From Candidatus Brocadia sp. (lineage in GTDB: Bacteria > Planctomycetota > Brocadiia > Brocadiales > Brocadiaceae): a DNA stretch of 32,000 bases. Made by a program: the position numbers and the translations under genes. Location: the NCBI GenBank assembly GCA_021650915.1, contig CP091279.1:2220001-2252000 (forward strand), written 5' to 3'. Position 1 is the stretch's first letter. Each line of letters begins with the position of its first letter. The notes under the pieces are model-generated. The model had not been told where the DNA came from. It did no database searches and worked only from the letters and a program-made list of their open reading frames with translations. Of this stretch, positions 1-14,562 are shown one piece after another.

Positions 1-2
1 CA

Positions 3-170
3 GCAGAAGTAACCGGCTTAAGATACATCATGGACGCTGACAGTGAATTGGCAGAACAGATACTGGCGGGAAAAGAAAAAGCTAACGCTAAAGTGGCAGT
101 AAAGACAAAGCCCAGGGCAACCCCAAAACCTGCGGCAAAGGCAAAAGGCAAGATAAAGAAGAAGAAATAG
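3..170 (+). CDS. 3' end of an upstream gene (partial); basic Lys/Ala/Pro-rich C-terminal tail, product unknown
   Basis: Frame 3 is open from the window edge to TAG at 168-170 (...AEQILAGKEKANAKVAVKTKPRATPKPAAKAKGKIKKKK*). A strong intrinsic terminator follows 60 nt later. Confidence 0.4.
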   Translation, partial: AEVTGLRYIMDADSELAEQILAGKEKANAKVAVKTKPRATPKPAAKAKGKIKKKK

Positions 171-229
171 CGACACGTATTCTGATTTCTTTCGTCAAAC
201 GACGGCTAGTAAAAAGGGAATACCATGAC

Positions 230-274
230 AGGGTTTTCTCCTATCCGGAAGATAGAAGAAAACCCTTTTTGTTT
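230..274 (+). terminator. Rho-independent terminator for the upstream partial gene
   Basis: AGGGTTTTCTcCTATC (230-245) pairs with GATAGaAGAAAACCCT (251-266) with one mismatch and a 5-nt loop CGGAA. The stem runs into TTTTTGTTT (266-274). Confidence 0.65.
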
Positions 275-298
275 ATTCGCACAGGGAGCGCTATTATT

Positions 299-1567
299 AT
301 GAAGAATGGATGTCTGTCAGGTCTCTTTTCGTTTGTATTCCTGATAACCCAATCTTTTTGTCTTGGGCAGGACAGAGAATCCCATGGCAGATTTCTGGTA
401 AGGGAATATCTGAAAAGCGATACCGAGGCTGAAAGAGAGACCATACTGAAGAAACTGAATGCATTACCAGCTACTTTTGATGAAGTTAAAGAATGGCTGA
501 AACTTTCTGACGAATATCCGCCCCAACAGCCAGGTTTACACCGGGAATTTGCCCCAGTTGGCGAAAGAAAGGGTGAATATTTTATCTCTGTCCCGTCTTC
601 TTATACACCGGATCGGTCATGGCCTATGATAATAGCATTGCATGGAGTTGGTGGCAATGGTTATGAAATGGCAATGAAATGGTTAAAGTCAACGACACAT
701 TATAATGAATTTATTATTGCAGCGCCTACCTACGGATCAGGATTATGGTGGAAAGAAGAGCCGGAAAAACTGGTACTTTCCGTACTGGACAAGGTAAAAC
801 GGAGTTACCGTATCGATACCAACAGGATTTACCTCACGGGGTTTTCAAGCGGTGGGCACGGGGTGTGGTATTTCGGAATCCGTTATCCCTGGCTTTTTGC
901 TGCGATAAACCCCATTGCCGGTGAGTGTCCGCTCCCCTCTTTCCTGGTAAACCTGAAAAATGTACCTGTCTTTATCGTTCATGGTCTAAAAGATACCGTT
1001 ATTCCGGTTGAGGCGGGAAGGGATGCGGGTTCCAGGCTGGAAAGACTTCATTATAATGTTCTCTGTCAGGAATTGCCGGAGCTCAAACATCAGTTTCCTG
1101 CAGAGGCGGCCGGAAAGGTGCTTGAATGGTTTCGCATGAATAAGAGGATGCCTTATCCGAAAGAAATACGATTTTCCACCGAATCATTGAAATATTCGTT
1201 TGCGTACTGGATTGAAATAACGGAATTCTCCGAGCTCATAGGACAAGTTCTGGGAGTTTACAAAGATATTTCTGGCAAACTGATAAGACCTGAAGGGGCA
1301 TCGGAGACGGCAAAAATTGAAGGGGTTGTGCAAAAAAAGGATAACGAGATTTTCTTAACTACCCACGGAATAAAGGCGCTGCGTCTTTACCTGGAAGACG
1401 GTTTCGTGGATATGGAAAGCCCCCTTCGCGTATATATCAATGGCAAATTAGTATCGTTTGAAAAGGTGGAAAAGGATATACGAGGCATGCTTGATGCTGC
1501 AAGAAAGAGGAACGACCGCGAGGCCTTGTGTTCCGCTTATGTGGATATAAAAATTCCCCTGGATTAG
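299..1567 (+). CDS. Secreted alpha/beta hydrolase (carboxylesterase / S9-like peptidase fold) with an extra C-terminal domain of about 150 aa
   Basis: The ORF 269-1567 is trimmed to ATG 299 because 269 lies inside the terminator. It has an N-terminal hydrophobic signal (MKNGCLSGLFSFVFLITQSFC), the nucleophile elbow GFSSGG, and HGVGGNG and VHGLKDTVIP motifs typical of esterase/dienelactone-hydrolase-like enzymes. Confidence 0.75.
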   Translation: MKNGCLSGLFSFVFLITQSFCLGQDRESHGRFLVREYLKSDTEAERETILKKLNALPATFDEVKEWLKLSDEYPPQQPGLHREFAPVGERKGEYFISVPSSYTPDRSWPMIIALHGVGGNGYEMAMKWLKSTTHYNEFIIAAPTYGSGLWWKEEPEKLVLSVLDKVKRSYRIDTNRIYLTGFSSGGHGVWYFGIRYPWLFAAINPIAGECPLPSFLVNLKNVPVFIVHGLKDTVIPVEAGRDAGSRLERLHYNVLCQELPELKHQFPAEAAGKVLEWFRMNKRMPYPKEIRFSTESLKYSFAYWIEITEFSELIGQVLGVYKDISGKLIRPEGASETAKIEGVVQKKDNEIFLTTHGIKALRLYLEDGFVDMESPLRVYINGKLVSFEKVEKDIRGMLDAARKRNDREALCSAYVDIKIPLD

Positions 1568-1705
1568 CACCATTTAAACCGGGGATATCAGTCACTACCT
1601 GGCGTATTTCCGCTATAAGCGGGTAAAAACAGGCATTCCGTCACGGAATAACCTTGGTAATACCGGTTCAAATGCATTCCGTTCTGATCCGCGGCCTTTA
1701 ATTCA

Positions 1706-1734
1706 TTGACACATTTTTCAAAAATCGTTATAGT
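1706..1734 (+). promoter_or_regulatory. Sigma70-like promoter candidate upstream of the csaA-recN-rluB cluster
   Basis: TTGACA (1706-1711), an exact 17-bp spacer, then TATAGT (1729-1734). It lies about 120 nt upstream of ATG 1855. Confidence 0.4.
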
Positions 1735-1854
1735 TATAAAAAAATAAATAAGCCTTGTCTTCGTCTCTTATTAACTGCCACATTCGTTTTTGCCGACTAC
1801 CAAGTTTATCGCACGTTTTAAAGAGGCTTATTCATTTTTTACGAAAGGTTTACC

Positions 1855-2181
1855 ATGATCTCGATAGAGGATTTTTTAAAGATAGACCTGCGGGTAGCTG
1901 AAGTAAGGCACGCAGAGCCTCACCCAAACGCGGACAAACTCCTGATACTGAAGATTGATGCGGGTGACGGAATGGAAGGCAGGCAGATCGTTGCCGGAAT
2001 AAGAGGCGCTTACCAGCCGGAAGACCTGATTGGAAAGAAAATCGTTATTGTAAACAATCTGACGCCTGCAACCCTGCGGGGCGTGGAAAGTCAGGGGATG
2101 TTGCTGGCGGCAAAGGACGGGAACCAGGTGGTAATCCTTACCACGGAAAAGGATATAAAGCCAGGCTCAAAAATACAATAA
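1855..2181 (+). CDS. csaA: tRNA-binding domain protein (CsaA / EMAP-II-like OB fold)
   Basis: The 108-aa product (DFLKIDLRVAEV...HPNADKLLILKIDAG...RQIVAGI...VIVNNLTPATLRGVESQGMLLAA) matches the CsaA / MetRS C-terminal tRNA-binding domain pattern. Confidence 0.8.
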   Translation: MISIEDFLKIDLRVAEVRHAEPHPNADKLLILKIDAGDGMEGRQIVAGIRGAYQPEDLIGKKIVIVNNLTPATLRGVESQGMLLAAKDGNQVVILTTEKDIKPGSKIQ

Positions 2182-2231
2182 AAAACTGAGTTATTATATT
2201 GTTCGGTTGCAGAAAATGGCAAAAAATCCCC

Positions 2232-3947
2232 ATGCTGCAAGAGTTATACATAGCGAATTTTGTACTAATTGATAAAGTTACCATCACCCTTTGCGAACAA
2301 CTGAATGTATTCAGCGGGGCAACGGGTGTCGGAAAATCAATGGTGATCGGGGCGCTCAACTTTATTCTTGGCGGGCGAGCAACCGCAGATCTTGTGCGAA
2401 GTGGCAAAGAGGAGGCAACCGTCATAGGGAAATTTTTCATTACCGATAAAAGTCTCCTGCAGCGGATTAAAAAGGCATCAGATAACAACTCCCTGGAAGA
2501 AGAACTCTTACTCCAAAGGAGTATCGATACAAACGGACGGAGCAGATGCCGCCTCAACGACGTTCCTATCACGGTAACCATGTTGAAAGAGATTGGAGAG
2601 ATATTGGTCAACATCCATGGCCAGCACGAACATGAAACCTTGCTGCATGGCATGAACCAACTATATATCCTGGATGATTTTGGAGGGATTTCTCCGCTGC
2701 GCGAACACTTTGCAGACGTCTATCAGCAGTTCACGGAAAAGACCACCCTGCGGGATACCTTAACAAGCAACCAACAGGACCGAAGGCAAAAGATCGACCT
2801 GTATGCCTTCCAGATCGATGAGATTGACAAGGCACAACTCAAGGCCGGTGAGGCAGAGGAACTTGAAAGGGAAAGGACGCTCTTAGGTAACGCCGAAAAA
2901 ATTTACAGTACGGTCTCCTCATGCTATTCCCAGCTTTATGAGTCTTCCGATGCTATTCTGGAAAGGTTGAAATCTCTGAGGCGTGAATTGCAATCGGTTG
3001 CAAAACTTGACGACGCCCTGCAAAAGATATTCGATGACTCCGCTCAATCGGAGTATCAGATGGAAGACACCGCTTTTTCTTTAGGGAAATACCGGGACGG
3101 CTTTAACTATGACCCGCAACGGCTGGAATATATTGAAGGACGTTTAGGCACCATCAAAAAGTTAAAATCCAAGTACGGGAATACGGTTGAAGAAATCCTG
3201 TCGTACCGTGATGAGGTATCGGGAAAACTGAAAAGTCTTTCTGAGGAAGGAACTACTGCCGGGCATCTGGATGATGAGATACAAAAACTAACGACCGCTT
3301 TGAGACAGAAAGGCAGTGAATTAACCAAAAAACGCCTCTCCACGGCAGAACAATTGACGCCTCTTATTAATAAAGAGCTTCACGACCTTGGTATCCCTCA
3401 CGGCCGGTTTTCTGTTCAGATCACCTCGCCTTTTTTACATAATCATGGCGATCCGCAGATTTCCGATGCAAAGAGACATGGTTTCGACCAGGTGGATTTT
3501 CTTATCTCACCCAATCCCGGCGAAGATTTAAAGCTGCTAAAAAAGATTGCCTCGGGCGGTGAAATCTCACGAGTCATGCTGGCACTAAAGCACCAACTGG
3601 CCAAGGCAGACAAGACGCCAGTCCTGGTTTTTGACGAGATTGACGCAAATATTGGAGGCAGAATGGGAGAGGTAATTGGGGAAAAGCTGAGCAGTATTGC
3701 AAGATCGCACCAGGTGATCTGCATTACCCATCTTCCTCAGATTGCCAGCTATGCAGACGGACAATGGAAGGTTCATAAAGTGGTAAAAAATGGCAAGACC
3801 TATTCAACCATAGAGAACCTATCGGGCGAATCCCGGCTTGAAGAAATTGCCGACATGATCCGCGGAAGTGAAAAAACGGACATTACCCGAAAACAGGCGC
3901 AGGAAATGTTGCGTGATGCAAAGAGAAAGGTGAAAAGCAAGGGATAA
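2232..3947 (+). CDS. recN: DNA repair protein RecN
   Basis: The start is taken at ATG 2232 (MLQELYIANFVLIDK...). It has a Walker A motif GATGVGKS, long coiled-coil middle segments and a C-terminal SGGE signature followed by a VLVFDEIDANIGG Walker B motif. Confidence 0.9.
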   Translation: MLQELYIANFVLIDKVTITLCEQLNVFSGATGVGKSMVIGALNFILGGRATADLVRSGKEEATVIGKFFITDKSLLQRIKKASDNNSLEEELLLQRSIDTNGRSRCRLNDVPITVTMLKEIGEILVNIHGQHEHETLLHGMNQLYILDDFGGISPLREHFADVYQQFTEKTTLRDTLTSNQQDRRQKIDLYAFQIDEIDKAQLKAGEAEELERERTLLGNAEKIYSTVSSCYSQLYESSDAILERLKSLRRELQSVAKLDDALQKIFDDSAQSEYQMEDTAFSLGKYRDGFNYDPQRLEYIEGRLGTIKKLKSKYGNTVEEILSYRDEVSGKLKSLSEEGTTAGHLDDEIQKLTTALRQKGSELTKKRLSTAEQLTPLINKELHDLGIPHGRFSVQITSPFLHNHGDPQISDAKRHGFDQVDFLISPNPGEDLKLLKKIASGGEISRVMLALKHQLAKADKTPVLVFDEIDANIGGRMGEVIGEKLSSIARSHQVICITHLPQIASYADGQWKVHKVVKNGKTYSTIENLSGESRLEEIADMIRGSEKTDITRKQAQEMLRDAKRKVKSKG

Positions 3948-4717
3948 TGGCAGAACGTCTGCAAAAAATACTGGCAGAGGCGGGATTAGGCTCTCGCCGT
4001 GAATGTGAAAGGATTATCGTGGCGGGGAAAGTGACCGTTGATGGAGAACGCGTCACAACCTTAGGCACAACGGTCGATGCAGACAAAAGCGAGATACGCT
4101 GCAATGGTACCTTGATCCGAAAGCAGCGAAAGATCTATTTTTTGCTGAATAAACCGAAGGGTTACGTGTGTACAAACCGTGACGAACTGGAACGATTAAA
4201 GGCAATTGATATCATAAAAAACGTGACCCAGAGGATATATACCATTGGCAGACTGGACAAAGAGAGCGAAGGACTGATTGTTGTGACCAATGACGGTGAT
4301 CTTGCAAACAAATTGTCTCACCCAAAGTATGAAGTGAGTAAAACCTATTTTGTCGAGGTGGATGGTTACCTGTCGGATGCGGCAATTGAGGCCCTGGAGT
4401 CCGGTATTTGGCTTTCCTTTGGCAAGACACAACCCGTACGGGTTCGTAATGTACGCAGGGGCAGGCAAAGAAGCAGGTTTGAGATGGTATTGAAGGAAGG
4501 TAAAAACCGGGAGATACGCCGTATGCTCGTTGATTGTAATTACAAGGTGCGCATCCTGCGTCGGATAAAAATTGGCAATTTATATGATCCGAGCTTAAAA
4601 ATCGGTAAATATCGCAAGGTAACGGACAACGAACTGGCGCGGCTGCATGCGCTGGCCGAAAGAGGATCCGCGCGCCGGGCAACCATTCAAGAATCTTTGT
4701 CGCACCCAAAAGGATAA
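3947..4717 (+). CDS. rluB: RluB/RsuA-family 23S/16S rRNA pseudouridine synthase
   Basis: The ATG overlaps the recN TAA by 1 nt (TAATG). It has an N-terminal S4 domain (RLQKILAEAGLGSRRECERII..GKV.VDG) and the catalytic motif GRLDKESEGLIVVTNDG. Confidence 0.85.
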   Translation: MAERLQKILAEAGLGSRRECERIIVAGKVTVDGERVTTLGTTVDADKSEIRCNGTLIRKQRKIYFLLNKPKGYVCTNRDELERLKAIDIIKNVTQRIYTIGRLDKESEGLIVVTNDGDLANKLSHPKYEVSKTYFVEVDGYLSDAAIEALESGIWLSFGKTQPVRVRNVRRGRQRSRFEMVLKEGKNREIRRMLVDCNYKVRILRRIKIGNLYDPSLKIGKYRKVTDNELARLHALAERGSARRATIQESLSHPKG

Positions 4718-4801
4718 AACCATTCTTTTCATCCCCCACCTCCGGGAGAAGAGAAACAATATAAACAACCTTTCTTCCTTTTTTAACAGGAACGGTGAGA
4801 G

Positions 4802-6103
4802 ATGATAAGGGAAATGTCGATGAAAAAGATGACGCAGCTACAACTGGCCAGGCAAAATATCATTACCCGGGAAATGAAGCAGGTTGCAACGGACGAATGC
4901 CTTGAACCCGAATATATCAGGGAACGCATTGCCGAGGGTAAGATTGTCATTCCCGCAAACCATAAGCGCACGGCCACAAGGGTCTGCGGTATTGGCACAG
5001 GGCTTAAAACCAAGGTCAATGCCAATATCGGAACTTCAGCCGATTATGCCGATATTGCAAACGAACTGGAAAAGTTGCAGGCGCTGGAAGAGGCAGGCGC
5101 TGATGCCGTAATGGATCTGAGCACCGGCGGTGATCTTCGTGCAATACGGAAAAAGATTGTCGGTTCAACGTCAATTGCCGTAGGAAGCGTCCCCATCTAT
5201 GAAGCCGCCGTCAAGGCCGTCCAACAGAAACATTCCATTGTTGATATGACGGCAACGGACATGCTTGAAGCAGTACGGTTGCACTGTGAGGACGGCGTTG
5301 ATTTTATTACCGTGCATTGTGGCGCCACAAGGGGGGTGCTCAAACATCTCAAAGAAAACAAACGTATTTGTGGCGTGGTAAGCCGGGGAGGGACGTTCCT
5401 CGTGGAATGGATGATCCACAACGGACGGGAGAATCCCCTGTATGAACACTATGACGAGATACTGGCTATAGCGCAGGAATATGACGTGACCCTGAGCCTG
5501 GGGGACGCCATGCGACCGGGGGCGCTTGCGGATGCATTTGATCGCGCACAGGTGTATGAGTTAAACGTACTCGCTGAACTTGCCCAACGGGCGCTGGATG
5601 CCGGTGTGCAGGTGATGGTGGAGGGACCTGGTCACGTACCTTTAAGTCAGGTAACCGCTCAGGTCCAATTGCAAAAAGAACTCTGCAAAGGGGTGCCCTT
5701 TTATGTGCTCGGTCCCATTGTCACAGACGTTGCACCCGGGTACGACCACATTACCTCCGCCATTGGCGGAGCGATAGCCGCAGCCGCAGGGGCGGACTTC
5801 TTATGCTATGTAACGCCAACGGAGCATCTGAGCCTGCCAGGTCCTGCCGATGTGAGAAGTGGCGTCATGGCAGCACGGATTGCCGCCCATGCCGCCGATA
5901 TTGCCAAAGGTATTAAATCGGCATGGGAGTGGGACAAAAAGATGTCACAATTCAGACGAAAGAGGAACTGGGAAGGGCAGTTTAGCACTTGTATCGACCC
6001 TGCAGTAGCCCGAAGCATCCGCGCAAAGGGAAAACCCCAAAACGAAGAGGTCTGTTCCATGTGCGCCGAATACTGCGTATTCAAGCTCAGCGACAAGGTG
6101 TAA
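4802..6103 (+). CDS. thiC: Phosphomethylpyrimidine synthase ThiC (short, anaerobe-type)
   Basis: Supporting segments are TQLQLARQNIITREM, GIGTGLKTKVNANIGTS, DLSTGG, MVEGPGHVP and the C-terminal CSMCAEYC Fe-S motif. The true start is uncertain among ATGs at 4802, 4814, 4820 and 4829. Confidence 0.9.
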   Translation: MIREMSMKKMTQLQLARQNIITREMKQVATDECLEPEYIRERIAEGKIVIPANHKRTATRVCGIGTGLKTKVNANIGTSADYADIANELEKLQALEEAGADAVMDLSTGGDLRAIRKKIVGSTSIAVGSVPIYEAAVKAVQQKHSIVDMTATDMLEAVRLHCEDGVDFITVHCGATRGVLKHLKENKRICGVVSRGGTFLVEWMIHNGRENPLYEHYDEILAIAQEYDVTLSLGDAMRPGALADAFDRAQVYELNVLAELAQRALDAGVQVMVEGPGHVPLSQVTAQVQLQKELCKGVPFYVLGPIVTDVAPGYDHITSAIGGAIAAAAGADFLCYVTPTEHLSLPGPADVRSGVMAARIAAHAADIAKGIKSAWEWDKKMSQFRRKRNWEGQFSTCIDPAVARSIRAKGKPQNEEVCSMCAEYCVFKLSDKV

Positions 6104-6188
6104 TAAAAAGACAGATTTTACAAGGCAAGGCGAGGCCAACCCTTAATTCCCTTTTGTGTCATGGGAAAAATATCCCTTTTTCGTCTTT

Positions 6189-7883
6189 CTATTTATATTT
6201 ATTCTTGTAATATTGCCCGAAAGAAGCCCTGTTCATTAAAAACTGATCCACATCTTTTGCTACCTCTATGCCACTGATATACGCCCCGTGAACTGACAAA
6301 GGTTGGTACTGGCTGTCGTATGCCGGCGCCGTAGCTTCGCCCGCCCAAAATACAGGAAGCGTTGCAAGCGGGTTCTTTAAAGTCTCCCTCGCCATGATAA
6401 TTTCTGCAATGCTCCTCCCATAACTTATATAAGAATTGCCACAACGTGTCCACGGATCTTTTCCCCAATCCGTACGGTGTACATTGGGTTCGTTTTCACT
6501 TTTCCACACCAACATTTGTTTCCAGTCCCAGGGATTTCTTTCCGGATGCGGGTTGTATATTTTTTCTATACACCGAAACATTATTTCTGCCGCTTTTTTA
6601 TCATCAACGTCCTTCATGATCAGGTAATCAACGCCCATGAGCAGGGCAGTGATCACATAAGGGCCATTTTCAAGATTGGGAAAGGCGGTAAAAAACGTTC
6701 GTGGCAACCCTTTATCCGCCAGCCCCAAAATTTTTTGCTCCGGCCCTGTTGGATTAACCAGGAGGGCCATGCCATTATCCAGATTGTTTATCCTCTGGTT
6801 GTAGTCCCAAACACAATCCTTGAATTGTATGCTTATTTTTGCAATCGGCCCTGGTTTTATGATTTGAAAGACATCCTGTTTCTCTTTCGGGAAGAATTGC
6901 CCAAAAATTTTAGAACCTTTATGCATAAGTATCCCAACGGAGAAGGTACAAAGTAAAGAATCTGCGGTAAAATCCTCACCGTTTCCTGCTGTTATCCGTA
7001 CACCCGTGTCCCATTTCTCCACCTTGATAACTTCATGTTCGTAAAGTATCTGCCCCTGAATTTTGCCAGGTTCCTTCTTCACAAATTCTTGCAAAATAGC
7101 GTTCGGTAATTCGTCAAAACGACAAATTACCTTATCATTTCCCGTATTCCTGCATATTCGGTATTCTGCCTGTTCGTCAAATATTTGTTCCGGGATTTTA
7201 TCTACTTTTAACCCCGCCACACTGATGTTATCATTTACCGCATCACACCATTGATCGCCGGCATGCTTAGGTGGGCACAGTTTGAACTTTTCTGTGCCGG
7301 TCGCTAGAATTCCTGGTGTATGCGCTGAAATGGCGTAACAGGACATGGGCGCCGCTTTTCCACGATACGCTAACGTTTTAACCAGTTCTCCTGCCGTTTG
7401 ATCCTGTTTGCTGAGATCAAACTTCTTTATTGCGTCGAACAGGCTGTTTTTCTCTTTAAAGCTGAAATTGAACAGTCCTCCTAAGTTACCCAGGTCAGAA
7501 TCATAAACATGCGCAAAACGCGCTGCCGGGGGAAATCCCCAGTTTTCCCGGTCTGGATCCCCCGGATAGGCAACCCGAACCTTGGTTCCTTTATTAAGCT
7601 CAATGCGATCGAACCCTTGTTGCCTTATCTCATCCCCATATTTTTTATAAGGGTTGCCATCCTTAACGTGGATAAAATGTGCCCCTTCCTCAATCGGCAA
7701 TCCCTCTCGTACCTCCCTGCCATCATTGGTAAGCACAAAGTCTTCCATCGAACGCATTCGCCCGCCAGCATGTTTCGTCGCCTCAAGTATTAAAACCTTT
7801 TTTCCCGCATTTTTCAGCTCTCTTGCGGCTACAACACCGGCAATACCCGCCCCCAAAACGATACAATCAAAATGCTCTGACAT
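6189..7883 (-). CDS. FAD-dependent amine-oxidase-family flavoprotein (substrate unknown)
   Basis: The start is taken at ATG 7883, preceded by AAGGAGG. It has the dinucleotide-binding motif DCIVLGAGIAGVVAARELKNAGKKVLILEATKHAGGR and the C-terminal WAGEATA flavin amine-oxidase signature. At 564 aa it is longer than typical family members. Confidence 0.75.
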   Translation of the reverse strand: MSEHFDCIVLGAGIAGVVAARELKNAGKKVLILEATKHAGGRMRSMEDFVLTNDGREVREGLPIEEGAHFIHVKDGNPYKKYGDEIRQQGFDRIELNKGTKVRVAYPGDPDRENWGFPPAARFAHVYDSDLGNLGGLFNFSFKEKNSLFDAIKKFDLSKQDQTAGELVKTLAYRGKAAPMSCYAISAHTPGILATGTEKFKLCPPKHAGDQWCDAVNDNISVAGLKVDKIPEQIFDEQAEYRICRNTGNDKVICRFDELPNAILQEFVKKEPGKIQGQILYEHEVIKVEKWDTGVRITAGNGEDFTADSLLCTFSVGILMHKGSKIFGQFFPKEKQDVFQIIKPGPIAKISIQFKDCVWDYNQRINNLDNGMALLVNPTGPEQKILGLADKGLPRTFFTAFPNLENGPYVITALLMGVDYLIMKDVDDKKAAEIMFRCIEKIYNPHPERNPWDWKQMLVWKSENEPNVHRTDWGKDPWTRCGNSYISYGRSIAEIIMARETLKNPLATLPVFWAGEATAPAYDSQYQPLSVHGAYISGIEVAKDVDQFLMNRASFGQYYKNKYK

Positions 7884-8108
7884 TGGTCTGTGCCTCCTTA
7901 TACAAAAAATCCGAATCACCAAATTGGTGTATCAACCCAGACAGGGTTGACGTATCCACATTTTTCCCAAAAACTAAATCCTTTTGTGATAGACTTCCCG
8001 CGTCTCAATTTGAATGGATATGGGTTTGAGTCTGGTCTTGCTCTTCATTCATGTTATCCCTTGCCGTAGTAATTTTTTACAAGCCTTTTCCCTTGCCAAA
8101 CACTAGCC

Positions 8109-8144
8109 GTACTAATAGCCATCTTATTTTACGGCTATTAGTAC
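8109..8144. repeat. Perfect 12-bp inverted repeat hairpin
   Basis: GTACTAATAGCC (8109-8120) and GGCTATTAGTAC (8133-8144) are separated by a 12-nt spacer. Confidence 0.8.
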
Positions 8145-8171
8145 ATAGCGCGGCACAGCCGCAACCAAATT

Positions 8172-8295
8172 TCCTTTATGAAAGCGGGGAGATTGCTTCG
8201 GAAAAGGCCCTCGCAATGACAGCGACCATGCACTTTGATGGCACACGGCACGTTGTCATTGCGAGTGAAGCGAAGCAATCTTTCCCTCATAAAAA
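8172..8295. repeat. Large imperfect palindromic intergenic element containing the widespread GTCATTGCGAGTGAAGCGAAGCAATC-type motif
   Basis: The left arm AGATTGCTTCG...CTCGCAATGACA (8190-8221) is mirrored by TGTCATTGCGAG...CGAAGCAATCT (8254-8281). The outer TTTATGA / TCATAAA also pair. Confidence 0.7.
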
Positions 8296-8676
8296 ACGGC
8301 ACCTCCTGAAAGGGGTTTGTGAAAAAACTTACAGAAAAAAGAAGTTTTTATGGAGTAATACTATAATATGTTTACAGGTAACTTATTATACGGCTATTTG
8401 GGCATAGGAATGATTTGCCGGTAATATACCTTGATTACCAAAATATTGCAATACGTTTTACTTTTTCATCAGGACAACGTCAAATATAAGTAGTGTTTGA
8501 ACGGAAACCCCCCAGAGCCCTGTAAAGTAAGGAGAAGCTGGTGAAAAATGTTCATGAAAGTCATTGAATTTTTTCGGGTAAAAGGGTAAAATATGGCGAA
8601 AATGAAGGGATTCTGGGTATAAAGAGTCCAAATATTCGGTTCATTAACCCACTAGCCAAAGGACATTCGATAGAAG

Positions 8677-10141
8677 ATGAGAAAGAGATTTGAGCAGCAA
8701 TTGAAGCTTGGCATCATACCCATTTCAGGGGTAAAACTGCCAATAAAGAGTCGAGATGAGCTACCACCGATACTGAGGGCGTTGCAACATATCTATGTTA
8801 CACCGGAGTTGAACGAGGAGGTATTCCGGATATTAGAGGCGAAGGTAACGAAGGGGAAGAAAAAGACGGGAAGATATGGGATGGATTTATGGCATATTTT
8901 GGTGTTGTCGGTGGTAAGATTAGGGTTAGATGCCGATTATGACAGGTTGGAGGATTTTGCCAACCATCACAAACTTATCAGGCAGATAATGGGGGTTGAG
9001 ACGGCATTTGGAGAGGCGAAGGTTTTTTCGATGCAGAGCATCAAGGACAATATAAGATTGTTGGATGAGGAGACCCTCAGGCAGATAAATGAAGTGGTGA
9101 TATCATCGGGGCATCAGTTGGTTAAAAAAAAGGACGAAGGACTGTGTATTAAGGTGGATACGTATGTGTTAGAGACGAATGTACACTTTCCGGCCGATAT
9201 GAATTTATTGTGGGATGCGGGACGCAAGAGTCTGGACATGATAGAGGATGCAATAGAGGAAGGCATCCTGGCGGGGAAAGGATGGCGCAAGAGCAAATAT
9301 TGGAGGAGAGAGTTAAAAAAGCTGATGAGGATAAGCGCAAAGGCGTCAAGCAGCGGGGGGGAAAAACAAGGAAGAGCATGTGAGGAGTTACTTGGAATTA
9401 TCGAGGGGTTTGAGTGAAAAGATAGGAGCGAGTCTGTTAGCCATCTACGAAAAGGTGCTAACGACGAACCAGGTAGACAAGCATGCAGGGAAAATAGGGA
9501 CACTGGAGTATTTTCACGGGATGTTGAATAAACAGATAGACCTGGTGGAGAGAAGGGTGATCCGGGATGAGGTAATACCGGCGGCAGAAAAGGTTCATTC
9601 GTTGTTTGAGCCGCATACGGAGTGGCTGTACAAAGGCAAGTCAAACAAAAGGGTAGAGTTGGGACATAATATTCTGGTAGCAAGCGATCAGTGGGGTTTC
9701 ATCGTGGACCATGTGGTAGGAGAAAAACAGGCGGATGTATCGTTGGTAATTCCATTGGCAGATAGGTTGTTGAGCCGTTACGGAGAAGGCACAATAAAGA
9801 GTATAAGTTTTGATAAAGGTTTTTACAAGAAAGAGAATAAAGAGTTGCTGAGTTTGTATATACCAGAGGTAATCCTTCCCAAGAAGGGCAAGAAGAATAA
9901 GGCGGAACAGGAAGAGGAATCGGGTAAGACATTTAAGAAGCTAAGGCACAAGCACTCGGCGGTAGAATCGGATATCAATCGTTTGGAGCATCACGGCTTG
10001 GATAGGTGTCCGGACAAAGGGCTGCATGCCTTTAAAAGATATTGTGCAATGGGCGTGTTAGCTGCGAATTTGCACAAGCTGGGAAACGTGCTGCAGGAGA
10101 AGGCACGGAAGCAGTGCGAAAAGTTGCGAAAAGCCGCCTAA
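8677..10141 (+). pseudogene. DDE transposase (about 487 aa if repaired), split into 8677-9417 and 9380-10141 by a +1 frame change in a G7 run
   Basis: The N-terminal DUF772-like segment is LWHILVLSVVRLGLDADYDRLEDF. The DDE candidates are IKVDTYVLETNVHFPAD, SFDKGFY and RHKHSAVESDINRLE. Frame 1 switches to frame 2 at GGGGGGG (9355-9361). Deleting one G fuses ...AKASSSGG to KNKEEHVRSYLELS... Confidence 0.75.
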
Positions 10142-10306
10142 GCAAGCAAAAAACACGAAGAAAAACAGTCTGCCGGGAGGCAGGTACGCCCAGACAAGGC
10201 TAAAATAAAGGGGAAAACAAGGGAAATATGTAAAAGAACAGTATTTTTGCCAAAAACCCTAATCTCAAATCTTAAAATTATCTATTGGTAAATAGAAAAT
10301 CGACCT

Positions 10307-10331
10307 CGCACTTTTACAAAAAGTGCGTTTT
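10307..10331 (+). terminator. Subterminal hairpin / intrinsic terminator at the right end of the IS
   Basis: CGCACTTTT (10307-10315), loop ACA, AAAAGTGCG (10319-10327), followed by TTTT. It overlaps the right inverted repeat. Confidence 0.5.
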
Positions 10332-10346
10332 CGTTCAGACACTAAG

Positions 10347-11240
10347 TAGTGTCTGAACGAGAACACGCTTTTTTAAAAAAGCGGCAGGGTAGTTTTCCGC
10401 TTACGAAAATCTTTTCTTAAAATTTGCTGCTAGCCTTTTGACAAAGGCAAGCTTCTTTTTCTCATTTTTTTCGTTTTCCCATTATTTTTGACCAGTCTGG
10501 ACATACTATCTCCCCGCCATACGGTTTTTTCACGTTTTTAGGCTGCCTTTCGCAGCTTCTCGTGCCTCTTCGCGCCTTCCCCTGAAGCACGTTCCCCAGC
10601 TTGTGTAAATTTGCTGCCAGCACTCCCAGGGCACAATACCTCTTAAATGCATGCAACCCCTTGTCCAGGCACCTATCCAAGCCGTGATGTTCCAAGCGAT
10701 TTGATGTCCGATTCCACCGCAGAGCGCCTATGTCTGAGCTTCTGAAATGTCTTGCTCGACTCCTCCGCCTGTCTCTCGGCAACCTGATGCTCTACGAGAA
10801 AACCCCATTGATCGCTTGCCACCAGAATGGTATGCCCCAATTCCACCCGCTTGTTTTGCCTTTCCCTTGTACAGCCACTCCATATGCGGCTCAAATAACG
10901 AGTGCACCTTCTCTTCCACCGGTATCTGCTCACCCTTTATCACCCTTCTCTCCACAAGCTCAATGTGCTTTTTCAACATCCGGTGAAAATACTCAAGTCT
11001 ATCGAGTTTACCCCACATACTGTCGCCTGATTTATTGCGAGCGTCCTCCCGTAGATCGCCAGCGTACTCTCCTCATCCAACAAACTTACATTGTACCTGA
11101 TGCTCTGCCTTGAAAGTCTCTTGCCCTCTCCGCATGTCATCTCTACCCCAAGTATCTGCCTGATAGGCTTATGATGGTCGGCGAAATCATCCAACCGATC
11201 ATAGTCTGCATCCAACCCCAATCTCACTGCCGATAAGACC
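10347..11240 (-). mobile_element. Decayed, 5'-truncated second copy of a related IS, in inverted orientation (transposase pseudogene fragments)
   Basis: The right inverted repeat TAGTGTCTGAACGAGAAC lies at 10347-10364. Minus-strand ORF fragments at 10462-10782, 10673-10933, 10728-11018 and 10973-11338 align piecewise to the 8677-10141 transposase (VRLGLDADYDRLDDFADHHK, LEYFHRML..ELVERRVI, NKRVELGH.ILVASDQWGF, SAVESDI, LEHHGLDRC.DKGLHAFKRYCA.GVLAANLHKLGNVLQ). There are frame changes and at least two internal deletions, and similarity ends near 11240. Confidence 0.75.
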
Positions 11241-11285
11241 AGACGGGCTGGAAAAAATTTGGCGGAGTTTTGCAGGTAATATTGG

Positions 11286-11313: not shown

Positions 11314-11378
11314 AATCCGGAAAATACGTACTGGACAATTATCTTACTGAACATGGACTTATGGGGAGGAAGAGGCAC

Positions 11379-12872
11379 ATGAAGGTGTTTTTGTCATTTG
11401 TGGGAGTGGCAATACTCTTTGGTGTTTTTTGCGGGGGAATACCGGCTCAAAAACTCGATAAAGGGGTAGGGCCGTACGGCGAATTCTGGAAACCAATCCC
11501 TACCCAGCGATACTGGGCACCGGACTACTTTTATTCACCGCCGGAAGAACCCAAAGGGGTATATACCGCGGATGAGTGTACGCTCTGCCACAAGGCTTTA
11601 AATCCAGGACTCGTTAAGGCATGGGCAGAAAGCAGCCATGCGAATCTCGATAAGCTGCTTGACTACCAGAAAGAGAAATTAGCCGAAATAGAAAAGACCC
11701 TGGGGCGGAAACTCACCAAGGTGGGATGTATCGATTGCCACGGCAAGGTGGGAGCGGAAAAGCTGGATCATGAAAAAGAGCTCGTTATGCCAAATTCCGC
11801 ACTGTGCGGTGGATGCCATAAACAGGAATACGAAGAGTTTGAGTCAGAAAAGCAATACGGTATTCCTGACTGGAAGCCAGGCAGGGAAAGCCATGCAAAG
11901 GCCTATGATGCCAATCTGGACGTGGATGTGTGGGCTGCGGTAGATAAGAATATTGTTCAGGGCTGCGATATGTGCCACAATATTCAGCACAAGTGCGACA
12001 GCTGTCACACCCGCCACGCCTTTAAGGCCTCTGAGTCCAGGCGTCCGGAGGCTTGCCAGACCTGTCATAACGGACCCGACCATCCTGATATTGAATATTA
12101 CCGGGACTCCAAACACGGTTCGATCTATTTTACCGAGGGGAAAGACTGGGACTGGAAAAAACCGCTCAAGGACGCCAATTATATTGCGCCCACCTGTCAG
12201 TCCTGCCATATGTATTACAAAGGGCAGTATTCTCACAATATGGTCAGAAAGGCCATTATGGGCGAGGGCGACGTATTGTTTTATGACAATGTGTTCAAAG
12301 GGATTAAGCCCACCGACTACCTCAGGAACAGCAAAGAATTAATGGCACGGCGCGAGGCATGGATAGAAGTCTGCGTAAAGTGTCATTCTCCACGGTTTTC
12401 CCGTGATTATCTTGATTCTATGGATAATGCCTCGGATGCTGTTTTCCAATACGTGAGCGATGCCTACGCCACGATTAAATCGCTTTACGAAGAGGGCATA
12501 CTCTACCCTATGCCTGAAAACAGGCCAAAAGCCCCTGCCCCCGTTGCGGAAAAGTATCCCGATCTCCTGGGCGGTTTCTACGGTGAATTTTGGGCGAAGA
12601 GCGGAAATCCGAGCAGGATTGAAAAGGACTTTTTGTATATGTGGGAAAACGATGCCTTTCTGGTCAGAAAAGGTCTGGCGCACATGAACCCCAACGGCTT
12701 TACCTATCTCTCGTGGTCAAATTTGCTCAAGAAATACGTGGATATACAAAGTGAGGCAAATACCTTGCGGCGGTTAGCTGCGTTGGAAAAGAAAGCCAAA
12801 CTGCGCCCCCGGACAAAAACGAAAAGTAAACAGACGCCCGGCGCAGCAGGGCCACAACAAAATCCTCCGTAG
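11379..12872 (+). CDS. hao: Octaheme hydroxylamine/hydrazine-oxidoreductase (HAO) family cytochrome c, secreted
   Basis: The start is ATG 11379, with GGAGGA 8 nt upstream. There is a signal peptide and eight CxxCH motifs (CTLCH, CIDCH, CGGCH, CDMCH, CDSCH, CQTCH, CQSCH, CVKCH). Colinear similarity to N. europaea HAO, recalled from memory, includes HANLDK, GCIDCH, CHTRH, KPEAC.TCH and GLAH.NP.G.TY. Confidence 0.9.
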   Translation: MKVFLSFVGVAILFGVFCGGIPAQKLDKGVGPYGEFWKPIPTQRYWAPDYFYSPPEEPKGVYTADECTLCHKALNPGLVKAWAESSHANLDKLLDYQKEKLAEIEKTLGRKLTKVGCIDCHGKVGAEKLDHEKELVMPNSALCGGCHKQEYEEFESEKQYGIPDWKPGRESHAKAYDANLDVDVWAAVDKNIVQGCDMCHNIQHKCDSCHTRHAFKASESRRPEACQTCHNGPDHPDIEYYRDSKHGSIYFTEGKDWDWKKPLKDANYIAPTCQSCHMYYKGQYSHNMVRKAIMGEGDVLFYDNVFKGIKPTDYLRNSKELMARREAWIEVCVKCHSPRFSRDYLDSMDNASDAVFQYVSDAYATIKSLYEEGILYPMPENRPKAPAPVAEKYPDLLGGFYGEFWAKSGNPSRIEKDFLYMWENDAFLVRKGLAHMNPNGFTYLSWSNLLKKYVDIQSEANTLRRLAALEKKAKLRPRTKTKSKQTPGAAGPQQNPP

Positions 12873-12886
12873 GAGAGGATAGCAAC

Positions 12887-12921
12887 CCCCTGAGTCCCCA
12901 CAGATAAGAGGGATTCAGGGG
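12887..12921 (+). terminator. Strong stem-loop directly after the HAO-family stop codon (no U-tract)
   Basis: CCCCTGAGTCCC (12887-12898) pairs with GGGATTCAGGGG (12910-12921), giving a 12-bp stem with one G-U pair and an 11-nt loop. Confidence 0.4.
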
Positions 12922-13065
12922 AATAAAAAGGGGCAAAAACACCTTTTCTGGAAAATGGGGAAAGAAAAATATTGCGCCGCATGCCATATCGGCAGGTATG
13001 AAATGGTGTCCTTCATACAAAATGCAGCGTCATACGCATGAATATCCGATCGTTACAACCCCTTC

Positions 13066-14562
13066 TTACTTGCCGGTGATGTCTGTAGAGATACCACACA
13101 CGCCGTAAAGACCTTCCACGGTATCATACATGGGAAATTTTAATGAAATATACGTATGCATCCCGTCGTCATGCGGGGCGAGTTCTTTAACCACCATGGA
13201 TCGCCGTGTTTCAAGCACCTTTTGATCATTCAGCCGGAAGGCATCGGCATTTTCTTTCGGAAAGAGATCGTAGTCTGTTTTCCCCACAACCTCTTCTTTC
13301 GTTACATGGAAGAGTTTTTCGTATTGACGATTGATAAGGAGATAACGGCACGAGGTATCTTTAAGATAAATAACCGCAGACGTGTTATCAAGAATCGCCT
13401 GCGACTGTTCTTTGCTCTTGCGCAGCGCCTCCGCAAAGCGCTTGTGTTCTGTGATTTCCTTTGAGAGCGCATCAGCCATAGCATTAAAACTGCTGGCAAG
13501 GTCGCCAATCTCATCCCTGCGATTAACCTCTATCCGATAATCCAATTTTCCGCGTCCGAATGTCTCTGCTTTCCTGGCAAAATCCTTAATAGGGCGTGAC
13601 AGTGAAGTAGCAAATGCTATTCCCACACCCGCCGCCACGGCAGCGCCAGCTATCCCTATAATCAAGGCAATCACACCTATGGTCTTTAATGATGCAAAGA
13701 CCTCGGCTTCATCTATCTCTGTCAAAAGTGTCCACCCATATTCCGGGATATCCATTGACGTGCCGACAACCGGTACCCCCCGGTAATCCGGATAGATTCC
13801 AACCATTTCCTGATTCTTTTCAAGAATCCTGCGAATGGGTTCTGTATCCACAACCAGTTGAAATGGCGCCTGCCCGATAAATCTTGACTCGGTAAGGATT
13901 ACCTTGTCTCTGTTAACTAAATATGCTTCGCCGGTTTCTCCCAATCCGACGCGATTGGTTGTTATATCATTCAGGCCCGTGAAATAATAAGCATTGATAA
14001 GAATACCAAGCGCTTCGGCGTTTTGTTGCGAGCGAATGGGTGCGCTGCTTAAGATACAATTTGCTGCAAGATATGAAGCATGTCGTGGTTTCATATAGGT
14101 TTGACCGTAGTCCAAATTCTTCGCTTGCAAAAATATTTCCTGGGCGGACATATCCCTGCCTATTAACGTTTTATTGGTAGAGGCAACAACCTTGCCGTCT
14201 CTGTCCGCAATAGCAATTGCGATAAGATGCCCGTCTAACGGCAACTTCTTTTTTGCAAGGTATCTGTTCAGATTGCCAGCGCGGCTTCCTCTGCCAGCAT
14301 TTTTCCGGATGATTGTCTCAAGGCTGTTTTGTATGAACCCATCGGAGCTGAAATCCGCGGTTCGCATCTTTTTAATCTCCATAAAAGCTTGGATGTGAAG
14401 CCTTTTTGAAGCTGCAACTGCCTTTAATTGCTCCAAAACCTGGCGCCGGAGAGTGTGTTTGGCGGTGAGGTAATATATCGTTGAAATGGTCGCTATTGGC
14501 AAGGACGAGATGCAGAGGGTTAATACCAGCAATTTGCCCCTAATGGATGCAAGCGGATTCAT
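13066..14562 (-). CDS. Membrane sensor protein with Cache-like periplasmic domain, HAMP and PAS domains, and no recognisable output domain
   Basis: AGGAG lies upstream of ATG 14562. The order is TM1 (LLVLTLCISSLPIATISTIYY), an extracytoplasmic region of about 260 aa, TM2 (IGVIALIIGIAGAAVAAGVGIAF), HAMP (DEIGDLASSFNAMADAL) and PAS (ILDNTSAVIYLKD...GISTDITGK*). No H-box or ATPase motifs are present. Confidence 0.75.
   Translation of the reverse strand: MNPLASIRGKLLVLTLCISSLPIATISTIYYLTAKHTLRRQVLEQLKAVAASKRLHIQAFMEIKKMRTADFSSDGFIQNSLETIIRKNAGRGSRAGNLNRYLAKKKLPLDGHLIAIAIADRDGKVVASTNKTLIGRDMSAQEIFLQAKNLDYGQTYMKPRHASYLAANCILSSAPIRSQQNAEALGILINAYYFTGLNDITTNRVGLGETGEAYLVNRDKVILTESRFIGQAPFQLVVDTEPIRRILEKNQEMVGIYPDYRGVPVVGTSMDIPEYGWTLLTEIDEAEVFASLKTIGVIALIIGIAGAAVAAGVGIAFATSLSRPIKDFARKAETFGRGKLDYRIEVNRRDEIGDLASSFNAMADALSKEITEHKRFAEALRKSKEQSQAILDNTSAVIYLKDTSCRYLLINRQYEKLFHVTKEEVVGKTDYDLFPKENADAFRLNDQKVLETRRSMVVKELAPHDDGMHTYISLKFPMYDTVEGLYGVCGISTDITGK

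Follow-up and report, generated by a model that had tools for sequence, protein, structure and literature searches.

A partner-less octaheme protein of the hao8 group in Candidatus Brocadia keeps the cross-link tyrosine of hydroxylamine oxidoreductase

Here we describe an octaheme c-type cytochrome gene of the hydroxylamine oxidoreductase (HAO) family in Candidatus Brocadia sp., an organism that carries out anaerobic ammonium oxidation (anammox). The gene lies on a stretch of 32,000 nucleotides (contig CP091279.1 of assembly GCA_021650915.1, positions 2,220,001 to 2,252,000, forward strand), which we call the window throughout. It is intact and under purifying selection, and its product bears a Tyr in the column of the residue that cross-links to the catalytic heme in the enzyme of Nitrosomonas europaea (NeHAO). 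Phylogeny and distribution place it with the anammox-only paralogue group published as hao8, the sister of the HAO of aerobic nitrifiers, and neither a redox partner gene nor a membrane anchor accompanies it. Taking all observations together, we consider it probable, with real room for doubt, that the protein is a soluble trimeric P460 enzyme that oxidises hydroxylamine and has an accessory role in anammox. Part of this picture is already known: the gene has been deposited and annotated, the hao8 group has been named, and both its kinship with nitrifier HAO and its Tyr state have been published. What is new here is minor, namely the stop-loss origin of the protein's tail, the insertion sequence (IS) history of the locus and the absence of both a linked partner and an anchor throughout the clade.

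The gene and its product

The gene and the residues on which the argument turns are located as follows (window coordinates).

11379..12872, + strand: hao8-type octaheme hydroxylamine-oxidoreductase-family gene, 497 amino acids plus stop (open reading frame (ORF) list, Pfam, Protein Data Bank (PDB) match, exact NCBI protein)
11365..11369, + strand: Shine-Dalgarno-like GGAGG, 9 nt before ATG 11379 (read from the sequence)
11379..11450, + strand: predicted Sec signal peptide, residues 1-24, MKVFLSFVGVAILFGVFCGGIPA (inspection by eye)
11964..11978, + strand: fourth CxxCH motif, CDMCH, C196-H200 (invariant in 46 sequences; aligned with CTMCH of NeHAO)
12078..12083, + strand: Asp234-His235, counterpart of the Asp267-His268 active-site pair of NeHAO (MAFFT alignment)
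12705..12707, + strand: codon (TAT) of Tyr443, at the position of NeHAO Tyr467 (HMMER and MAFFT alignments)

The 497-residue product starts at ATG 11379. The longest possible reading frame would begin at an in-frame ATG at 11361, but the downstream codon is preferred because of the GGAGG in front of it and because seven orthologues start at the homologous codon, mostly with MK(V/A)(I/F)LSF. The original prediction had credited the protein with eight CxxCH motifs and a Sec signal; the motifs are found and the signal is predicted. The amino terminus is hydrophobic and resembles a signal peptide without a lipobox; a helix spans residues 2-18 in an AlphaFold2 (AF2) model, and cleavage would occur after IPA (MKVFLSFVGVAILFGVFCGGIPA/QK). 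The eight CxxCH motifs begin at C67, C117, C143, C196, C206, C226, C273 and C332, and all are invariant in an alignment of 46 sequences. Eight His residues outside the motifs are equally invariant in this alignment (H87, H131, H172, H213, H235, H246, H286 and H435); by count and homology they would correspond to seven distal heme ligands plus the catalytic His. The Pfam family PF13447 (Multi-haem_cyto) matches with an E-value of 9.3e-85 over profile positions 2-269 of 269. The ratio of non-synonymous to synonymous substitution rates (dN/dS) is 0.02-0.05 against those orthologues for which dS could be estimated, and 0.04-0.05 against other Brocadia; the gene is therefore under strong purifying selection. 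Neither hydropathy (KD19) nor comparison of orthologue carboxy termini reveals a C-terminal hydrophobic segment, and the protein is predicted to be soluble.

The cross-link tyrosine and the active site

The original prediction assigned the Tyr encoded at 12705-12707 to the position of NeHAO Tyr467 by comparison with the NeHAO sequence, and that comparison turns out to be essentially right. A phmmer search against the PDB pairs the segment GLAHMNPNGFTYL with its NeHAO counterpart in such a way that Tyr443 falls on chain residue 467, which is the cross-linking Tyr of the N. europaea enzyme (bioRxiv 10.64898/2026.07.28.741245), and an independent MAFFT alignment returns the identical column. The MAFFT set consisted of 27 orthologues, 42 aerobic HAOs and five structurally characterised proteins: NeHAO, the reductive HAOr, HOX and HDH of Kuenenia stuttgartiensis (KsHAOr, KsHOX and KsHDH) and the HOX of Brocadia fulgida, these five being represented by their aligned parts only, as rebuilt from the PDB alignments. 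Tyr occupies the column in 27/27 orthologues, in 43/43 aerobic HAOs (the 42 plus NeHAO) and in KsHOX, B. fulgida HOX and KsHDH, so that the residue is aligned with the Tyr of the characterised oxidative enzymes and not offset from it. The reductive Kuenenia HAOr carries Trp at this point.

The catalytic heme of these enzymes is heme 4 (bioRxiv 10.64898/2026.07.28.741245), and homology suggests that the fourth motif, C196-H200, binds the corresponding P460-type heme in the window protein. The Asp-His pair is retained in 27/27 clade members and in 43/43 aerobic HAOs, as well as in HOX, HDH and HAOr. Because the reductive HAOr carries Asp-His too, the pair is uninformative on the direction of catalysis. 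The association of the Tyr with oxidative catalysis, which the original prediction had drawn, is one that we also infer.

Family placement

NeHAO is the best match to the window protein among all PDB sequences (phmmer, 354 bits, E = 1.4e-104), followed by HAOr (kustc0458) with 270 bits, HOX (kustc1061 and the B. fulgida protein) with 215 bits and HDH with 169 bits; the E-values of these four kinds of enzyme span 1.4e-104 to 1.6e-48 and the matches cover residues 26-478. The same order emerges from structure. The AF2 model, a heme-free monomer predicted from the 46-sequence alignment and used only for coarse ranking with Foldseek, is closest to NeHAO (TM 0.64), then HAOr, HOX and HDH, with TM values from 0.64 to 0.50 that have to be read as those of a low-confidence model.

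A neighbour-joining tree of 74 sequences (461 columns, 100 bootstraps) resolves an anammox-only clade holding the window protein (bootstrap 100) and a clade of aerobic HAO (bootstrap 100). The two join each other, to the exclusion of HAOr, HOX and HDH, in 97 of the 100 replicates, whereas the window clade joins HAOr in 2/100. The protein thus does not cluster with the Tyr-less reductive paralogue, an outcome that would have spoken against the original prediction. HOX groups with HDH (bootstrap 100), apart from the window clade, and the equivalog profile for HDH (NCBIfam NF052343, hydrazine_HDH) scores 183.5 bits against a cut-off of 900. Judged by these comparisons, the window protein is not an orthologue of HOX (kustc1061-type).

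The topology has a close precedent. Okubo et al. (2021, DNA Res, PMC7814187) found that the hao8 cluster joins the hao cluster of ammonia-oxidising bacteria and that Kuenenia is without hao8, and a later phylogeny describes HAO8 as the sister of the HAO of these bacteria (GBE 2025, PMC12758564). The latter work also placed the oxidative Tyr state at the root of the major anammox clade and reconstructed a reversion in the HAOr/HAO3/HAO7 subclade alone (PMC12758564). Like the published hao8 group, the window gene is anammox-only, groups with the HAO of ammonia oxidisers and keeps the Tyr (PMC7814187; PMC12758564); its orthologues were detected in Brocadia, Jettenia and Scalindua, and the pattern-based scan described below gave no match in Kuenenia. 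From this agreement of topology and distribution we regard the window gene as a likely member of the group, and nothing essential separates the two. What sets the window species apart from other hao8 carriers is a TAG-to-CAG stop loss that adds 13 residues, together with a move of the gene to a place beside an ISNCY remnant and a convergent sensor gene. Two Kuenenia genes, kusta0043 and kuste2435, were considered as orthologues of the window gene and rejected, because kusta0043 is described as a HOX paralogue and because Okubo et al. state that Kuenenia is without hao8 (PMC7814187).

Comparison with the solved enzymes sharpens the placement. NeHAO HaoA (PDB 1FGJ, 4FAS and 4N4N) is the best solved relative, with about 43% identity on conserved columns; the two proteins share the order of the eight CxxCH motifs, the Asp-His pair, the column of the cross-link Tyr and the seven distal His. 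The window protein differs from NeHAO in the absence of several loop insertions, of the C-terminal hydrophobic anchor and of Tyr334, in its membership of a separate monophyletic clade and in its anaerobic host. The nitrifier cluster haoA-haoB/orf2-cycA-cycB has no counterpart at the window locus or at the orthologue loci. Among the anammox enzymes, the HOX of K. stuttgartiensis (kustc1061, 4N4J) and of B. fulgida (6T5E) are, like the window protein, soluble octaheme proteins with the Tyr cross-link position and the Asp-His pair. They are about 37% identical to it (215 bits) and fall in another subclade together with HDH; HOX oxidises NH2OH to NO (bioRxiv 10.64898/2026.07.28.741245), and it is the enzyme that we prefer as a guide to the function of the window protein. 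HDH of K. stuttgartiensis (kustc0694, 6HIF) also combines eight hemes with Tyr and Asp-His, at about 35% identity, and has an HDH-specific insertion that the window protein lacks. HAOr of K. stuttgartiensis (kustc0458/kustc0457, 6H5L), about 40% identical, has the active-site motif GPDHPD in common with the window protein, but combines Trp at the cross-link position with a diheme partner; the window protein carries Tyr and lacks a partner gene of this kind.

Distribution of orthologues

The exact window protein is public (NCBI UJS19240.1 / MCC6325709.1, 'Candidatus Brocadia sp.'), and the same 497-residue product is encoded on 20 contigs from independent assemblies in NCBI, JGI and Logan, one of them 3.25 Mb long; the protein-cluster record gives 4.05 Mb for its longest contig. 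Homologues fall into two tiers. The upper tier, at 63-92% identity, is confined to Brocadiia and includes Jettenia, Wunengus, Scalinduaceae, Bathyanammoxibius and Tripitaka (order Hypogeohydatales), while the lower tier, at 38-47% identity, is made up of HAOs of methanotrophs and ammonia oxidisers. Orthologues at 63-94% identity were detected at 51 loci in about 50 species genomes by a pattern-based scan of one genome per GTDB species, in which an absence is supportive but no proof. All belong to the class Brocadiia, across which hao8 is conserved, except for one chimeric scaffold binned as Nitrospira. The loci cover B. pituitae, B. sapporoensis, B. carolinensis, Jettenia ecosi, Scalindua and other Brocadiia, with a 93% identical orthologue in the complete genome of Ca. 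B. pituitae (locus L046). No orthologue was found in Kuenenia by this pattern-based scan of single species representatives.

The Nitrospira-labelled entry (protein P0017, locus L050) is 78-81% identical to the window protein, and a transfer across phyla was considered for it and rejected: the ORF is chimeric and comes from a scaffolded metagenome-assembled genome. On scaffold JABMDK010000013.1 of 'Nitrospira sp. YR-XLJ-1', the hao ORF at 5770-6909 is nitrifier-like up to VGCIDCH, then closely resembles Brocadia hao8 to about window residue 301 and continues into unrelated junk; identity to the window protein is 77.7% across aligned residues 54-301. Its neighbours are CycH, AmoB and CopD, on a scaffold interrupted by an N-gap. 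The chimera is probably a metagenome assembly or scaffolding join at a conserved heme motif rather than a gene transfer, and the deposited protein (HP496_08930) carries it over.

Proposed function and alternatives

What could such a protein do? We propose a model in which the window HAO would be exported by the Sec pathway as a soluble octaheme c-type cytochrome and, by homology, would assemble into a homotrimer. Within the trimer, a covalent bond would connect Tyr443 of one subunit with the five-coordinate heme 4 (C196-H200) of its neighbour and yield a P460-type cofactor, and Asp234-His235 would act as the distal acid/base pair. Hydroxylamine would be oxidised at this site, probably to NO as in NeHAO and KsHOX. 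Seven bis-His hemes would then pass the electrons to the surface of the protein, where a soluble c-type cytochrome, its gene lying elsewhere in the genome, would take them up. Trimer, cross-link, substrate, product, catalytic direction and cellular compartment are features that we infer for the window protein. Hydroxylamine oxidation is favoured because the nearest characterised enzyme is NeHAO, and an accessory role is suggested because hao8 is not among the strongly expressed hao genes and has been lost in Kuenenia. All hao genes of B. pituitae are expressed, the strong ones being hao1, hao2, hao5B and hao3, not hao8 (PMC7814187), and the HAO-like genes found to be regulated in the extracellular electron transfer (EET) transcriptomics of Shaw et al. 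are orthologues of kustc0458 and kustd2021, not members of the hao8 clade.

Several points weigh against this model. The rule that Tyr marks an oxidative enzyme is an extrapolation from NeHAO, HOX and HDH, as the literature searched contains no purified or assayed hao8 member. The reductive HAOr is the second-best relative by both sequence (PDB) and structure (Foldseek). NeHAO Tyr334 is not conserved in the window clade, and is present in only 6/43 aerobic HAOs, so that product specificity is not readable from sequence. The AF2 monomer is poor (mean pLDDT 64, pTM 0.57), as expected of a multiheme cytochrome modelled without its hemes, and the loop at 437-442, just before Tyr443, lies below pLDDT 50. 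The hao8 label itself rests on topology and distribution rather than on a direct match to published locus tags. Finally, since hao8 is not among the well-expressed hao genes, the physiological importance of the enzyme may be small.

Two alternatives keep the enzyme functional and change its reaction. The protein might be a second hydrazine-oxidising enzyme, an HDH-like back-up that turns its P460 chemistry on N2H4 and yields N2. The host is an anammox bacterium with hydrazine as a central intermediate, HDH shares the Tyr and the Asp-His pair, and some oxidation of both substrates is seen with the characterised oxidases of the HAO family, the KSU-1 enzyme among them (PMC3655542). We nevertheless regard this as unlikely, as no characterised relative is more distant than HDH (169 bits, 35% identity), the HDH equivalog score stays far below its cut-off, and the closest characterised relative, NeHAO, is a hydroxylamine enzyme. 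A somewhat smaller chance is left to the protein working reductively in vivo in spite of its Tyr, as a nitrite, NO or hydroxylamine reductase, for example as the missing nitrite reductase of those Brocadia that have neither nirS nor nirK. HAO-like proteins have been proposed as substitutes in such species (PMC7814187), HAOr ranks second among the PDB matches and the hao8 clade is without an assayed member. On the other side stand the invariance of the Tyr across the whole clade, the Trp that takes its place both in the aligned reductive HAOr and in BpMHAO (bioRxiv 10.64898/2026.07.28.741245), and the lack of a kustc0457-like diheme partner gene; moreover, it is hao2 and hao3, not hao8, that have been put forward for nitrite reduction (PMC7814187).

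The remaining two alternatives concern the history of the gene. Might hao8 be decaying or silent in the window species, stranded among IS elements and separated from its ancestral neighbours? Immediately upstream there is an IS remnant with a fresh IS insertion beside it, the neighbourhood is unlike that of other Brocadia, the stop codon at 12831-12833 has been lost, and no sigma-70-like promoter was detected upstream on the + strand by a scan that does not cover promoters of Planctomycetota and is uninformative there. We give this reading very little weight. The eight heme motifs, the Asp-His pair, the Tyr and the distal His are all intact, dN/dS against other Brocadia is low, the identical protein recurs in 20 contigs from independent samples, and about 137 bp in front of the start have been kept together with a good Shine-Dalgarno sequence. 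Least probable of all is a recent horizontal transfer in which the flanking IS elements would have carried the gene over from an aerobic nitrifier or methanotroph, an idea that draws on the HAOs of methanotrophs and ammonia-oxidising bacteria being the closest non-anammox relatives and on the presence of IS elements around the gene. The orthologue scan and the neighbour-joining tree effectively refute it: identity is 38-47% to aerobic HAOs against 63-94% to the orthologues of Brocadiaceae, Scalinduaceae, Bathyanammoxibius and Hypogeohydatales, and the window clade and the aerobic HAOs are each monophyletic with bootstrap 100. In addition, the window protein is without the C-terminal anchor typical of aerobic HAO, and the IS elements are strain- or species-specific. 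Oxidation of hydroxylamine by a soluble P460 enzyme is the reading that we favour.

What would an enzyme of this kind mean for the anammox cell? A bolder version of the hydroxylamine model, in which HAO8 is a living anaerobic sister of the nitrifier enzyme whose oxidation of hydroxylamine matters to the physiology of the cell, seems to us improbable. Brocadia-type anammox bacteria lack NirS/NirK and reportedly run a hydroxylamine-dependent pathway. If the bolder version held, a partner-less soluble P460 enzyme with NeHAO-like chemistry could set the balance of NH2OH and NO in these organisms, and HAO8 could let the cell use external hydroxylamine. Comparison of HAO8, which has neither anchor nor c554/cM552, with NeHAO would then show which additions made an anaerobic enzyme the core of aerobic nitrification. 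The hao8 clade is the closest anaerobic relative of the HAO that drives aerobic nitrification and is a reasonable target for heterologous expression; no hao8 protein has ever been purified because the model anammox organism, Kuenenia, is without the gene. For annotation, the window protein is best described as an oxidative-type, Tyr-bearing HAO paralogue and not as HOX, HDH or nitrite-reducing HAOr. The current understanding of anammox metabolism is left unchanged by our findings.

The C-terminal tail

The protein ends in the tail KLRPRTKTKSKQTPGAAGPQQNPP, which has two origins, a basic end that is common to Brocadiaceae and a read-through extension.

12798..12830, + strand: basic C-terminal tail KLRPRTKTKSK (alignment of orthologue C-termini; the others stop right after it)
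12831..12869, + strand: 13-residue read-through extension QTPGAAGPQQNPP (DNA alignment; CAG at 12831-12833)

Proteins of Brocadiaceae normally finish with EKKAKLRPRxKxKxK followed by the stop. At 12831-12833 the window has CAG where five other Brocadia species have TAG, and QTPGAAGPQQNPP is therefore read-through into the former 3' untranslated region caused by a recent TAG-to-CAG stop loss. The occurrence of the same 497-residue product on 20 contigs of independent assemblies argues against a sequencing error. The original prediction had remarked on an unusual Lys/Pro-rich tail in place of a membrane anchor. Such a tail is present, but its Lys-rich part is normal for Brocadiaceae and only its Pro-rich end is peculiar, being the product of the stop loss. 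The extension is specific to the window species and is unlikely to be a functional module; the odd tail should be annotated as an evolutionary stop-loss artefact.

The absence of an anchor is borne out by comparison with aerobic enzymes. In 14/15 HAOs inspected from nitrifiers and methanotrophs (among them P0093, P0095, P0098, P0103, P0112 and P0120) the C-terminus consists of a hydrophobic segment rich in Gly, with maximal KD19 values of 1.4-2.6, and a cluster of Arg/Lys behind it, and this segment is predicted to be a membrane anchor. The anammox hao8 clade is without it and ends shortly after the last helix. A Methylophaga sequence (P0024) also lacks the hydrophobic segment.

Orthologues from Scalindua have a different C-terminal addition, about 55 residues long and containing four CxxC pairs (as in CEACKKG...WCNSCK...CKDCF...CETC). 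It is encoded at the 3' ends of the genes at loci L027 (7300-7640), L035 (7300-7635), L036, L034 and L043, has no Pfam match and resembles a zinc-ribbon or metal-binding module fused to the octaheme enzyme.

Organization of the locus

The surroundings of the gene are marked by two IS copies upstream and by a convergent gene downstream.

10312..11241, - strand: degenerate ISNCY-family remnant directly upstream of hao8 (identity to the intact copy; NF033593 matches of ORF fragments)
8507..10342, + strand: newer ISNCY-family insertion (NF033593 transposase; missing from L001 and L002)
13066..14562, - strand: convergent dCache-HAMP-PAS sensor gene, 498 amino acids, the next gene downstream of hao8
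12886..12921, no strand assigned: GC-rich hairpin between the convergent genes, CCCCCUGAGUCCCC...GGGAUUCAGGGG (folding)

With opposite-strand IS remnants on one side and a convergent gene on the other, hao8 is monocistronic by geometry. This agrees with the original prediction, which described a single-gene unit with IS debris at one border and without a partner of the c554/cM552 type. The 32-kb window holds no other multi-heme ORF, and a single CxxCH occurs in just two of its ORFs, about 16 kb away, one encoding an Fe-S protein and the other being a spurious overlap ORF. We surveyed the neighbourhoods of 57 orthologue loci by ORF clustering and Pfam annotation. Neither a cytochrome gene nor haoB, c554 or cM552 is linked to hao8 in the window or at any orthologue locus examined, and this survey also yielded no kustc0457-like diheme partner gene at the orthologue loci. 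The stand-alone state is a property of the whole clade, and the neighbours are lineage-specific housekeeping genes:

Most Brocadia: GATase1-like gene, cytidylate kinase (cmk), ribosomal protein S1 (rpsA), sigma-70
Basal Brocadiales: HAD hydrolase, RuvX, Macro domain
Another group: M23 peptidase, EamA transporter
Window species: the convergent sensor gene

In the window species the neighbours of hao8 differ on both sides from those in other Brocadia, which fits an IS-associated rearrangement. The older ISNCY remnant is inverted relative to the intact copy, to which it is 75-80% identical, and is also present in other assemblies of the species (L001 and L002); about 137 bp separate it from the start codon of hao8. 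The newer copy lies beyond it, head-to-head with the old one, the two forming a 33-nt near-palindrome at 10312-10379. L001 and L002 lack the newer copy and run from window position 8506 straight to 10343, which marks it as an insertion at strain level. Two ORFs, 8677-9417 and 9380-10141, share its transposase and match positions 4-219 and 218-443 of NF033593; the split at about 9380-9417 may reflect either a frameshift or programmed recoding.

Upstream of the IS region, two assemblies of the same species carry wholly different genes (L001 1-8764 against window 1-8292). The 3.25-Mb assembly (L001, GCA_021463075.1) has genes for a caspase-like peptidase and CsgG-like, TPR, Toluene_X and CarboxypepD_reg proteins, and the window has RecN-like, RluB-like, ThiC and amine oxidase genes. 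Synteny between strains is thus broken at the locus.

On the downstream side, the original prediction had noted a terminator-like hairpin. The hairpin is real, and folding of the 93 nt that surround it (12868-12960) gives -31.9 kcal/mol with z = -2.96. Behind it on the + strand comes AAUAAAAAGG instead of a U-tract, and no + strand site at 12886-12921 appears in the terminator scan. We do not call it a terminator because the U-tract is missing.

The sensor gene on the far side of the hairpin stops right after its PAS domain and has no kinase, cyclase or other output domain. Its product is equally long in six other assemblies, and the gene is therefore not a local truncation. Further along the window (24338-27034, + strand), a formate-dehydrogenase-like molybdopterin oxidoreductase with Fer2_4, NADH-G 4Fe-4S, Molybdopterin and Molydop_binding domains is presented as two ORFs. 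Between them stands a single in-frame TGA at 25409-25411, within CART*HAPSVAGL, and this codon very probably encodes selenocysteine.

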